Origin: Candidatus Kerfeldbacteria bacterium
Lineage (GTDB): Bacteria; Patescibacteriota; Patescibacteriia; SBBC01
Assembly: GCA_016207275.1 (NCBI GenBank)
Contig: JACQPY010000018.1
Coordinates: 23,960 to 87,959 of the forward strand
DNA length: 64,000 bases
Reading direction: 5' to 3'
Made by a program: the position numbers and the translations under genes
The notes under the pieces: generated by a model
Seen by the model: only the letters and a program-made list of their open reading frames with translations
The model's database searches: none
What the model was told of the DNA's origin: nothing
Shown here: positions 2,223-5,200 of the stretch, piece by piece
Layout: each line of letters opens with the position of its first letter
Position numbering within the stretch: the first letter of the stretch is position 1

Positions 2223-5200
2223 AGGTCACGGTTCGATCATCCAGCTCCGCCACGGTTGACGGCTGGCCAACCGACGCGGCTGTGGTCAGCGAGGACAGGC
2301 CTCCCTTTTTCATCAATTCCGCTTTAAAGTGCTCAACAACTTTTGCGCTTTCCGCATCAGCCTGGTAGGCCAGCGCCACTGGTTTGCCCGGTTTCAGCTT
2401 CAACTCCTTGCGCAGGGCATTAATCGCTCGCACCATTTCCCGCAAATAGCCTTCTTCGCGCAGCTCATCGGTAATGGTAATGTCCAAGGCCACGTCTTCG
2501 GCCGCCATCCAGTCCGGGCCTTCAGGCAGTTTTTTTGCCGACACAATTTCTTTGACGTTTAGCTCGTCTTTCAAAACTTCAATCAAGGTATCACGAAATT
2601 CGTGCGTCACCACCAGCTGCGACAGCGGCTGACGGACTTTCAACTTGGCCTGCGCGCGCAAGGCATGACCGGTTTCCACCACCTGACGCGCGCGGGCCAT
2701 GGTAGCCAGCAGTTCCTCGTGCCGTTCGCCGGCTGACGGCCACTCTTCCAGATGCACTGACTGTTTCCCGCCAAGCTCACGCCACAAGGCATCAGCCAGA
2801 AACGGCGTGAACGGCGCGGACAGCTTGGCGTACTGGCGCAAGACGTAGCCGAGCGTCGCCGTCACCTCACCCCGACCATCACCTTTAGCTCGTTCGCGCG
2901 AACGGCGGACATACCAGGTTGACAAGCCAGTCACGAAGCTCATCAGCTCGCGACCAGCATCAACGATGGCGTAGTGTTCGAGTTTCTTTGTGACCGATTC
3001 GCTGGTTGCATCGAGCAAGGCCAAGATCCACCGATCCATGACAGGTGCGTTATCAGTTATCGGTTGTCGGTTGGAAGGATCAACTGATAACTGATAACTA
3101 CCAACTGATAACTCATTACTGCTTCCCAACAACTTCCAAAATGACAACACGTTCCAGAGAATCATGAAATTCTTTTTGACGACCTCGGCCAGCTGGTCTT
3201 CGTCAAAGTTTTTCGGTTCCGACGGCTGGTTGATGGTGAACAGGTACATCCGCACGGCGTCAGCACCATAGGTGTCCAAGAGCTTCATCGGGTCAATGTA
3301 GTTACCCAGGCTCTTGGACAGCTTCCGGCCTTGCTTATCGCGAATGTGGCCTAAGACCACGCAGCTGTTGTACGGCGGTCCGGCTGGCACTGCTTTGGTG
3401 GTTTGCAAGAAGGTGGAAATTGCCAGCAGCGTGTAGAACCAGCCGCGCGTCTGGTCAATCGCTTCGCTGATGAAGTCGGCTGGGTAGGCGTTCTTAAAAC
3501 GACCTTTGTTTTCAAAGGGATAGTGCCACTGGGCCAAGGGCATTGAACCAGAATCAAACCACGTGTCGACCACCTCCGGAATACGCTTCATCGTTCCCTG
3601 GCCACAGGTCTGACACGTCCACGTCACCGCATCAACGAACGGCCGGTGCGGATCAAAGCTGCCGTCAGGACGAAACGCCACGGCCGGAAACCGCACCTCG
3701 TTTGCTTCGGCAAAGGCTGGGTAGTGTACTGCTTCTACCTGCGACTCGGCTTTCAGCGAGGCCGCCCATACCGCCACGAAAATCGGATCGCCGTGCGAGA
3801 CCAGGACAATGGTCTGGCCGTCGTACTTCGCATCGAGTTCAAACAGCAGCTCAAACAGTCGTTTCCGGACGTCCAACCAGGTTTCTGCGCCGCCGGGCGG
3901 CAGCGTATGAAAACGATTGACGTGGCCGAGCCGCTGGTGAAACTCCTTGGTCGTCTGGCCCTCAAACTCCGGGCCGACCTGGTATTCGTCGAGTCGCGAG
4001 TCGGTTTGCATGGCAACACCCGCGGCGGCGGCAATAGCCTGGGCCGTTTGCTTGGTGCGCACGAAATCAGACGACACGACTACCTGAACGCCCTGCCGGG
4101 CCAGCGCCTGGGCGGTCTTCTTGACCTGCTGCCGCCCGCGCTCCGTCAAGACCACGTGCTGATTCAAGGTGATTTCGGTGTTGATTTTATCTTTAAGGCT
4201 AATCGTTGCTTCGCCGTGACGAACAAAAATGTAGCGGTTACGCGTTGGCAGTTTTTTCAACAACTCCTCGTAACTTCCAATGCATTCCTGGTGTTTGCAG
4301 TGGTCGCATATCCAAATCGGCAACGGCGTGCCCCAGTAGCGCTCGCGCGAAATCGCCCAGTCCTTCACCTCTCGCAGCCACTCGCCGAAACGCCCGTCCT
4401 TGATGTGCGTCGGCACCCAGTTGATTCTTTCGTTATTCTTGATCAGCTCATTACGCAGCTTTGACATAGTAATAAACCACGACGTTTTGGCGTAGTACAG
4501 CAAGGCGTGCTTGCAGCGCCAACAGTATGGGTAGTCGTGCTCGTACTGTTCTTCCCGGTACAGTTTTCCGTGCGTCTTCAAGTATTTGACAATCGCGTCG
4601 TCGGTCTCTTTGGTCTTAACTTCCTTACCAACCCACGGTTTCACCAGCTGGTTGAACTTTCCTTCCAGATCGACCGTGTGTTTTTTCGGCAGATCAAGTT
4701 TTGAACCAAGTTCAAAATCATCTTCACCGTACATGACGGCGGTGTGCACCACACCAGTGCCTTCTTCAGTCGTCACAAAATCTGCCGGCACGATGGTATA
4801 CGCATTTTTGTAAACTTCCCCTCCTGCCTGAGGAGGGGCCGCCTCGCGTTTTCCGCCTCTGGCGGAACTACGCGGGCGGGGGTGGTGGGAGCGCAAATCA
4901 AGAAAATCAAACAGTGGTTGGTACTGTTTACCAACCAACTCCTTACCCTTAAACTCCTCAACCACGCCGGTCTGGTCATCGGCCGCCAAGCGACTGAGCA
5001 AGTCTTTAGCCACAATTACGTTGCCGTCGCTGGTCAGCGCTTTGACGTACGTCAGTTTTTCGTCCACCGCCAAGGCCACATTGCCCGGCAACGTCCACGG
5101 CGTCGTCGTCCACGCCAGGATGTACGTCCGCGGTTCATCGACTAACTCGAATTTTACGTAGACCGCTCGATCTTTCACCCGCTCGTAGCCTTGGGCCACT

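Follow-up and report, generated by a model that had tools for sequence, protein, structure and literature searches.

How did GC-rich palindromic DNA come to be read in frame within two protein-coding genes, one of them ileS, of a bacterium of Candidatus Kerfeldbacteria? The question arises from a metagenome-assembled genome of this group (Patescibacteria; candidate phyla radiation, CPR), of which a stretch of 64,000 nucleotides (nt), here called the window, was analysed. An earlier note on this DNA had proposed that a segment of ileS and a segment of a glycosyltransferase family 39 (GT39) gene were repeats inserted in frame and translated as loops. On re-translation the positions and translations of both segments were correct. 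Both segments are likely to be copies of a dispersed non-coding palindromic element, composed of a short tag and hairpins, which landed in coding DNA. The GT39 copy would be recent and private and the ileS copy an old cassette, with genes of the DUF559 family and their hairpins as the likeliest source or partner. At its core the finding is one more case, from a CPR bacterium, of the known in-frame insertion of repetitive extragenic palindromic (REP) sequences. It differs from the known cases in the repeat family, in DUF559 as the partner gene and in a clade-wide, recombining cassette in the editing domain of isoleucyl-tRNA synthetase (IleRS).

In-frame hairpin segments in ileS and GT39

The ileS gene (2209..5772, minus strand, TTG start) encodes a type-2 IleRS of 1187 amino acids (aa) with the Pfam domains tRNA-synt_1, Anticodon_1 and DUF5915. 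The protein was 100% identical to the NCBI Candidatus Kerfeldbacteria protein P0001, and the GT39 protein was likewise 100% identical to an NCBI protein. The block differing from uninserted orthologs, here called the cassette, spanned R294-N323 (4804..4893, minus strand). It had 30 aa compared to 7 in the uninserted orthologs, a net gain of 23. Within it H296-E319 was HHPRPRSSARGGKREAAPPQAGGE and was encoded by 4816-4887. On the coding strand the insert ran from an unpaired tag, GCGCTCCCACCACCCC, through hairpin A (CCGCCCGCG..TTCCGCC AGA GGCGGAA..CGCGAGGCGG) and hairpin B (CCCCTCCT CAGGC AGGAGGGG; plus strand 4818-4838) to EVYKN. It was in frame with the gene and free of stop codons, and its GC content was 75% compared to 56% for ileS. 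Hairpins were scored by folding the DNA as a single strand and comparing it with dinucleotide shuffles. The ileS insert folded into two adjacent hairpins (z -6.0), and none of 200 shuffles was equally good.

Structure models were made with AlphaFold2 (AF2), disorder being read from the predicted local distance difference test (pLDDT). In the IleRS model pLDDT fell below 50 exactly at residues 297-320, leaving the insert as a low-confidence coil. The PDB chain 8c8v, a solved type-2 IleRS, aligned up to ..FNFVKVEKGH and resumed at EVVTADYVT with the insert unmatched, and the isolated connective peptide 1 (CP1) editing-domain structures 1wk8 and 1ue0 matched both flanks. This places the insert within a CP1 editing-domain turn, in the region to which the earlier note had assigned it.

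The second segment lies in a gene for a GT39/PMT_2 membrane glycosyltransferase (33232..35049, minus strand, Pfam PF13231). Alignment to orthologs placed the insert at V189-W235 (34345..34485, minus strand), with two repeat units and the peptide PPPLTPPPSARHSAEPRLRRGVQAGGGPLSPHPPSPQRGE. The repeat-derived part was 34357-34485. Unit A (34357-34392) consisted of CCTCACCCACCC and CTCTCCTC AGA GAGGAGAG. Unit B (34393-34485) began with GTAGCACTCCCACCCCC on the coding strand and formed a long composite hairpin. The insert was in frame and without stops, had a GC content of 70% compared to 60% for the gene and folded with a z-score of -3.2. The window protein has 47 residues where all 31 aligned orthologs, two of them at 69-73% identity, have 5, a net gain of 42 aa (126 nt). 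The short loop of the orthologs (e.g. LQSPG) lies between YWRS and W(F/L)(V/I)WFG. That none of the 31 orthologs has the insert is a direct observation, and because of it the insertion appears private to this genome and recent. The AF2 model (mean pLDDT 88.7) had a coil at residues 191-228 (pLDDT 54-70) between transmembrane helices 171-190 and 229-250. A location of both inserts in predicted surface loops, as the earlier note expected, is supported by the two models and, for IleRS, by the PDB alignment.

Other features of ileS were observed. IleRS contains, at aa 515-678 (window 3739-4230), an entire histidine-phosphatase domain (Pfam His_Phos_1, E 1.6e-31); this domain was present in most Patescibacteria IleRS matches, and shorter relatives of ~960-1018 aa were without it. 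A second repeat-prone loop (window 3046-3117, aa ~886-910) contains a palindrome with 27-nt arms, TGCGTTATCAGTTATCGGTTGTCGGTT / AACTGATAACTACCAACTGATAACTCA, and encodes ..LSVGSYQLSVDPSNRQPITDN... This loop was 7 aa longer than in the closest relative, had pLDDT below 50 at residues 886-896 and carried different repeat-like inserts in other lineages.

The tag-hairpin family and the DUF559 genes

Alignment of the repeat units gave a constant architecture: a tag, (GTAN)CCACC(C/T)C, then 2-5 bases, then a hairpin with a polypyrimidine 5' arm. The arms were of the CCCCTCCT...AGGAGGGG or the CTCTCC...GGAGAG type, with one or two hairpins per unit, and the stems differed between copies. CCCTCC-N3-11-GGAGGG occurred five times in the window compared to 0.04 expected, and CTCTCC-N-GGAGAG twice compared to 0.02. 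A scan for tag plus hairpin found about 12 distinct units in 64 kb, the mean of first-order Markov simulations of the sequence being 0.85. Nine of these units were intergenic or at gene ends. Six of the 12 units had GTAC, GTAT, GTAA or GTAG, separated from the stem by 8-12 nt that included CCACCCC. The ileS unit had GCGC in the GTAN position, and no CGTC tag was found in the aligned window units. All six solo units had the same orientation. Intergenic inverted doublets of ~100 nt (E1, E2 and E3; z -4.9 to -6.6) folded as a single long hairpin closed by tags, and z-scores across all tested elements ranged from -3.2 to -6.6. Membership of the two inserts in this family is directly supported. Hairpin folding, motif enrichment and stop-free frames bear out the earlier claim that both are repeat-derived and in frame.

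Apart from the three large doublets the intergenic units included U1, a solo unit just upstream of smpB (GTACCACCCC TAG CCCCTCCTAGCCTAGGAGGGG; 11536..11572, minus strand). Two units lie at 55045..55175 (minus strand) in a region without a convincing gene, one a hairpin CCCTCTCCTC..GAGGAGAGGG with GCTGGGGTGAGG and the other a longer hairpin with GTGGGGT. A tag-hairpin doublet is at 59487..59545 between the genes 58070..59512 and 59628..62120. Rfam at gathering thresholds and ARAGORN detected only a tmRNA and a tRNA-Asp in the window, and the repeats matched no known RNA family.

The window encodes two DUF559 proteins of a Vsr-like/EDxHD-type nuclease fold. Gene 1 is at 5870..6313 on the minus strand (Pfam PF04480, E 1.9e-34). 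Gene 2 is at 48782..49192 on the plus strand (PF04480, E 5.8e-29; PDB 3hrl, E 3e-16). Both genes end inside tag-hairpin elements; the Pfam domain stops at aa 116-117, beyond which repeat DNA encodes the tail. E3 (5843..5960, plus strand, z -4.9), a composite palindrome with terminal inverted repeats TCACCTTCCC...GGAGGTGA and three inner hairpins, supplies the final ~30 codons and the stop of gene 1. Gene 2 has a full doublet on each side. E1 (48623..48725, plus strand, z -5.8), of the form tag-hairpin-spacer-hairpin-tag', is 56 nt upstream. E2 (49146..49247, plus strand, z -6.6), a direct repeat of E1, overlaps the 3' end and encodes the C-terminal 20 aa. The DUF559 gene of the relative L001 likewise ends inside a tag-hairpin doublet. 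An E-x-D-G-x-x-H motif (E65, D67, H71) was invariant in three aligned DUF559 proteins.

The repeat family had already been noticed in both DUF559 tails, and this is not a coincidence. Hairpins of the polypyrimidine-stem type, the same kind as the window units, were scored in 80 metagenomic loci encoding relatives of the window DUF559 proteins. They peaked on the two sides of the DUF559 domain, with 9.7/kb over the 60 nt that precede it and 12.5/kb over the 30 nt that follow. Inside the domain there were none, and beyond 300 nt the background was 0.2-0.35/kb. A hairpin was present at the 3' end in 59 of the 80 loci and was read as a C-terminal tail in 37. Repeats common to the upstream and downstream flanks were found in 55/69 loci compared to 5/55 controls, and the CCACCC/GGGTGA tag was ~15-fold enriched beside the flanking hairpins. 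The sequence 3' of the DUF559 gene in L165, GACCACCCC-GGCGGCCTTCGGCCGCC-ACCCCTCCTCATTCGAGGAGGGG, has the tag-hairpinA-hairpinB layout of the ileS inserts in the IleRS sequences P0011 and P0014.

In Escherichia coli K-12 the stop codon of ycjD, a DUF559 gene, falls within the loop of a degenerate hairpin copy. A full 56-nt hairpin element (CCCCTCGCCCCTCTGGGGAGAGGG TTA GGGTGAGGGG; NC_000913 1351194-1351249) is located 170 nt downstream of ycjD. Across 5426 E. coli genomes the median number of its occurrences was 16 per genome. It resembles the window unit at 55045-55090 in its layout of a hairpin plus GGGTGAGG. The boxC repeats of enterobacteria are G+C-rich imperfect palindromes of unknown function. 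They are 56 bp long and have about 22-32 copies in E. coli (PMC2267715). The element downstream of ycjD is provisionally identified as boxC from the fit of length and copy number. Going by these loci, the tag-hairpin family appears specifically tied to DUF559 genes, a tie that extends from this CPR bacterium to ycjD of E. coli. The start of ycjD is also overlapped by a perfect 17-bp inverted repeat, TCACCTCATTCTGACAA / TTGTCAGAATGAGGTGA (L173, NC_000913 1351000-1352300, at 758-802), which at its outer ends is similar to the TCACCTC tag found in the window elements.

These data bear on the simplest alternative, that the segments are ordinary lineage-specific low-complexity or ancestral protein sequence and their hairpins a by-product of Pro/Gly/Arg codons. 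GC-rich tracts of such codons readily look palindromic, and the absence of long BLAST copies would suit this explanation. Against it, motif and architecture were enriched far above chance, a fold z-score of -6 was reached against dinucleotide shuffles, the same units occurred in intergenic DNA and beside DUF559 genes in unrelated metagenomes, and the segment was absent from outgroups. The explanation is largely refuted and very improbable.

A second alternative takes the units for classical REPs. A REP-associated tyrosine transposase (RAYT) would have spread them through its action on single-stranded hairpins, and the ileS site would have been hit repeatedly because a RAYT gene adjoins it. A Y1_Tnp gene was found directly 5' of ileS in the relatives L081, L082 and L002, and another in L087. 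The best NCBIfam match was REP_Tyr_transpos (E 1e-18 to 1e-20), whose 67-74 bits far exceeded the score of the IS200 model but did not reach the curated cut-off of 80. The GTAN start in 6/12 tags, the inverted doublets resembling REP doublets forming hairpins (REPINs) and bacterial interspersed mosaic elements (BIMEs), and the co-orientation of the six solo units would also suit such an origin. However, tblastn found no RAYT or Y1_Tnp homolog in the 64-kb window, and no tag-hairpin units were found within 260 nt either side of the RAYT-like genes in L081, L082, L002 and L087. L002 has a RAYT-like gene yet an uninserted ileS, and the units bracket DUF559 genes instead. Spread by RAYT is therefore regarded as unlikely.

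The comparison with RAYT-linked systems, or REPtrons, is similarly divided. The window units resemble them in having inverted doublets that fold as one hairpin and strand-biased solo units, and a single-copy RAYT-like gene is present in relatives of the window genome. As in REPs, the units are short imperfect palindromes in many copies, mostly extragenic, and form inverted doublets. Unlike in REPtrons, they flank a gene for a PD-(D/E)XK/Vsr-fold nuclease and not a Y1 transposase, and no RAYT gene flanked by its repeats was found in the window or at the RAYT-like genes of the four relatives. [quoted passage not shown] Unlike in MITEs, no target-site duplication was seen at the junctions of the two inserts, and no related autonomous insertion sequence with a known transposase was found; the only gene regularly bounded by units was DUF559, which is no known transposase.

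A DUF559 gene with its flanking hairpin doublets may itself be an unrecognised REPtron-like selfish element, the tag-hairpins (boxC-like ones included) being its cis-partners and the solo hairpins its non-autonomous copies or footprints. This is possible but doubtful. The homing endonuclease I-Bth0305I (Taylor et al. 2011, PMC3239194) is a member of the Vsr-like fold group to which DUF559 belongs (PMC3424549). Unlike the EDxHD homing endonucleases, the window DUF559 genes are free-standing, not in introns or inteins. DUF559 proteins were among the enriched targets in a survey of programmed inversions (PMC9881135), and this would be in keeping with genes that have inverted repeats at their borders. 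Literature searches turned up no link between boxC and DUF559, no paper describing a hairpin association of DUF559 and nothing specific on RAYT in CPR or on in-frame repeats in Patescibacteria.

The slot directly upstream of ileS (window 5773-6427) was occupied differently between relatives. It held DUF559 in the window and in L001 (9486-9890), the RAYT-like Y1 transposase in L081 (7904-8729), L082 (9195-10000) and L002 (~9288-9878), and other small ORFs in L083, L085 and L088. It was empty in L084 and L089. It has the look of a site at which selfish genes land. The L082 RAYT-like protein (9287-9853) had an extra segment of ~25 aa, ..GILVTAFGGIPPSFEMNICGGKRTPWVRGREATDL.., between the HUH region and the remainder of the protein compared to that of L081, which may be another in-frame insertion. 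A conserved palindrome, ATGCGATCTGATATATCGCAGT, was present 20-100 nt 5' of the ileS start in all relatives examined (window 5775-5800; L081, L082, L002 and L001), and a similar copy was 5' of the L002 RAYT-like gene. It could serve as an operator or belong to a promoter.

The ileS cassette across Kerfeldbacteria

The IleRS comparison set comprised 47 Kerfeldbacteria-clade sequences and outgroups. A repeat-built insert was present at the same site in 20/47, in the form DLR, 16-40 variable residues and ..AY(T/S)IVP. The remaining 27 (57%) and the outgroups were uninserted, with a near-invariant turn DL(E/G)KE(T/S)GKKAYYI(A/T)(D/A), i.e. DL(E/G)KETGKKAYYIAD. The ileS segment is therefore old repeat-derived sequence and not ancestral protein. 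The earlier note had expected both segments to be lineage-specific, which holds for GT39; the ileS segment is not private. It had also named homologous segments at the same positions in orthologs from unrelated lineages as the finding that would count against insertion. Such segments do occur in ileS within the clade, but the outgroups and more than half of the clade are without them.

Several features were common to the inserts. Arg294 was present in 20/20 inserted and 0/27 uninserted IleRS, and association with insertion state was confined to residues 294 and 318-329, the rest of IleRS not tracking it. The synonymous codon TTG for Leu293 was used in 11/13 inserted compared to 0/6 uninserted DNA sequences (hypergeometric p ~0.001). 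The window shared TTGCGCTCCCACCACCCC with its relative P0002 and with the distant P0020. P0002 had two tandem tag-hairpinA-hairpinB units compared to one in the window. Hairpin B and the ..YKNAYTIVP junction were common to the window, P0005 and P0011, and ACCACCCCGGCGCGCCGCGCCACCCCTCCT-loop-AGGAGGGG was almost base-identical in P0005, P0011 and P0014 despite saturated synonymous sites (~0.45 identity). An interpretation of Arg294 as the terminal GCG of the element was dropped, P0005 having R-K-E-T before the element and P0023 using AGG.

The site could alternatively be a true hot spot, with a dozen or more independent insertions brought about by target preference or a selection filter and with flanks alike by convergent compensation. 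At least four unrelated hairpin types were found at the site (CCCCTCC, GGGGCGGGTTTGAAACCCGCCCC, CCGCGGGTTTAAACCCGCGG and CCCTGAGCGAAGC). The insertion point within the turn also varied, falling after R in the window, after RKET in P0005 and after RKVGRS in P0016. Arg294 is encoded by AGG in P0023 and by CGN elsewhere; it is therefore held also at the protein level, which points to selection on the amino acid. The second ileS loop (aa 886-896) also gathers repeat-like inserts in several lineages, and a general recombination signal was absent. Independent events would not be expected to yield the common Leu293 TTG, hairpin-B junction and ..AYTIVP flank, and the P0014 cassette came inside an imported segment of ~0.8 kb, as described below. 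Repeated independent insertion is thus rather unlikely.

An IleRS tree was built with the insert site masked. Fitch parsimony gave 12-15 state changes on it, compared to a mean of 16.7 for shuffled states, and the distribution of the insert is patchy as far as this tree indicates. Close relatives differed in state, as in P0014/P0015 (87% identity) and P0023/P0024 (83%). The ArgRS (arginyl-tRNA synthetase) proteins of P0014, P0015 and L006 were 86-89% identical, and their ileS DNA was ~80-86% identical outside exceptional tracts. At alignment columns ~240-500 around the site, P0014 had an identity of 0.41-0.72 to both relatives compared to 0.71-0.87 between P0015 and L006. The nearest protein to P0014 in this segment was the inserted P0019 (81%). 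Elsewhere P0019 was at 66% and P0015 was nearest at 87%. P0014 clearly acquired its cassette by homologous recombination, within an imported ~0.8-kb CP1 segment. P0035 showed a similar switch of nearest relative, which suggests recombination of the cassette in a second lineage. L006 was an outlier with respect to P0014 and P0015 (0.46-0.70 compared to 0.72-0.89) only over the phosphatase domain, columns ~570-780; here ileS has a further recombination tract, independent of the first. From the P0014 tract and the L006 mosaic, recombination within ileS is therefore not rare in the group. The window's own cassette looks vertically inherited within the subclade of the window, P0002, P0003 and L004. 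Our reading is that the ileS cassette arose a few times, after which its hairpins turned over in place and it was exchanged laterally.

The inserts could also be kept for a function, either as an mRNA or DNA hairpin in pausing, processing or attenuation or as a basic loop contacting tRNA or membrane. The element DNA was more conserved than nearby synonymous sites (near-identical ACCACCCCGGCGCGCCGCGCCACCCCTCCT in P0005, P0011 and P0014 compared to ~0.45), and the cassette persists in ~40% of the clade with flanks under amino-acid-level constraint. On the other side, insert content and length (16-40 aa) were highly variable, the 57% of lineages without the cassette keep a conserved short turn, the GT39 insert is in one genome only, the same elements are scattered through intergenic DNA and AF2 predicted no structure for the inserts. 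Maintenance for a function is quite improbable.

Origin of the inserts and their meaning

The explanation favoured here is insertion of a dispersed tag-hairpin element. Copies would land within ileS and GT39 coding DNA and survive where their length is a multiple of three, the frame used is free of stops and the loop is structurally permissive. Such loops would be the CP1 editing-domain turn of IleRS and the loop between two transmembrane helices of GT39. The inserts would then be read as disordered Pro/Arg/Gly-rich loops. The ileS cassette, in ~40% of Kerfeldbacteria, would have diversified by the adding, duplicating and replacing of hairpin units, and at times would have passed between lineages via homologous recombination of the CP1 segment. 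The solo copies would most likely have DUF559 genes and their hairpins as source or partner.

A number of points weigh against this explanation. BLAST of the ileS inserts against their own locus or the window linked no long copies, so the family is definable by short common motifs and architecture only, not by long sequence identity. Neither the ileS nor the GT39 junctions displayed a target-site duplication. We infer that the inserts are translated and roughly neutral, translation being deduced from the intact frames and the amino-acid-level conservation of the flanks. The DUF559 association is one of position only and could reflect a shared terminator or regulatory hairpin and not mobilisation. 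The ratio of near to far protein-flank identity did not differ between same-state and different-state pairs, which is explained by fast evolution of the 60 residues upstream in every pair. Inserted pairs had no excess of synonymous identity at the conserved anchors flanking the cassette (0.474 compared to 0.47). Nearest-neighbour analysis of ileS found no co-conversion tracts. With the co-conversion tests negative, recombination is therefore demonstrated for P0014 and suggested for P0035, and not for all lineages. A general model of homing with co-conversion was tried and is unsupported, the signal being confined to the three-way comparison of close relatives.

Rickettsia palindromic elements (RPE) are the classic case of in-frame repeat insertion. 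The view that coding insertions are typical of only a few organisms, Rickettsia for example, did not stand, as Di Nocera et al. 2013 (PMC3733652) list many species. In that study intragenic REPs with GTAG and CGTC tags were in frame and added 20-30 aa, clusters adding 43-82 aa. They were reported in tRNA synthetase genes among others, and an intragenic REP was at about the same site of recB in two Xanthomonas species. The inserts were argued to occupy loops, and repeat ends often supplied stop codons (PMC3733652). Intragenic REPs and RPE resemble the window units as short tagged stem-loops which are mostly intergenic, often inverted dimers and in some cases in frame inside ORFs. As with intragenic REPs, both window inserts are in frame in a conserved ORF and absent from orthologs, 31/31 for GT39 and 27/47 plus all outgroups for ileS. 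Unlike intragenic REPs, the window units have a longer tag (GTAN plus CCACCCC) 2-5 nt from a polypyrimidine-arm stem, reside in a CPR bacterium and flank DUF559 and not RAYT, and one ileS site is occupied across a clade and recombining.

The window contains further repeats and RNA features. A tmRNA (Rfam, 90.7 bits; 12110-12523) is located directly 3' of smpB (11579..12028) and was not called by ARAGORN. A separate repeat family of ~74 nt has three copies (14207-14280, 23646-23719 and 25505-25578) at 65-89% identity, with its own hairpins CCACGGCC..GGCCGTGG followed by CGGGACTGGTGCGTGGGT. Two more short repeat families, GTCAAATGTCAAACGTCAAATGT and TCATCCTTCGA..CTCAGGATGA / CTCGGGATGACCC.GAGCG.AGTCGAAGGGTC, stand side by side at the intergenic sites 1787-1816, 22020-22078, 38223-38259, 38632-38661, 55363-55445 and 55523-55583. 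Two adjacent paralogous genes at 27182-31269 (674 and 668 aa, minus strand) contain about nine diverged internal repeats of ~165-220 nt (family D1).

Palindromic repeats that lie in frame within essential genes illustrate a way in which selfish or neutral DNA can make proteins longer without lethality, which was known in principle. Such repeats account for some of the odd low-complexity loops in the predicted proteomes of uncultured bacteria. The IleRS editing-domain loop behaves as a landing pad for repeats, its contents turning over and being exchanged between species by recombination, and offers a natural experiment on the tolerance of an essential enzyme. The link to DUF559 is an interesting lead and gives a testable hypothesis for the roles of DUF559 proteins and boxC-like repeats. 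If DUF559 with its hairpins did prove to be a selfish element, this would provide a function for a very widespread protein family and an origin for a class of repeats which has been without one since the 1990s.

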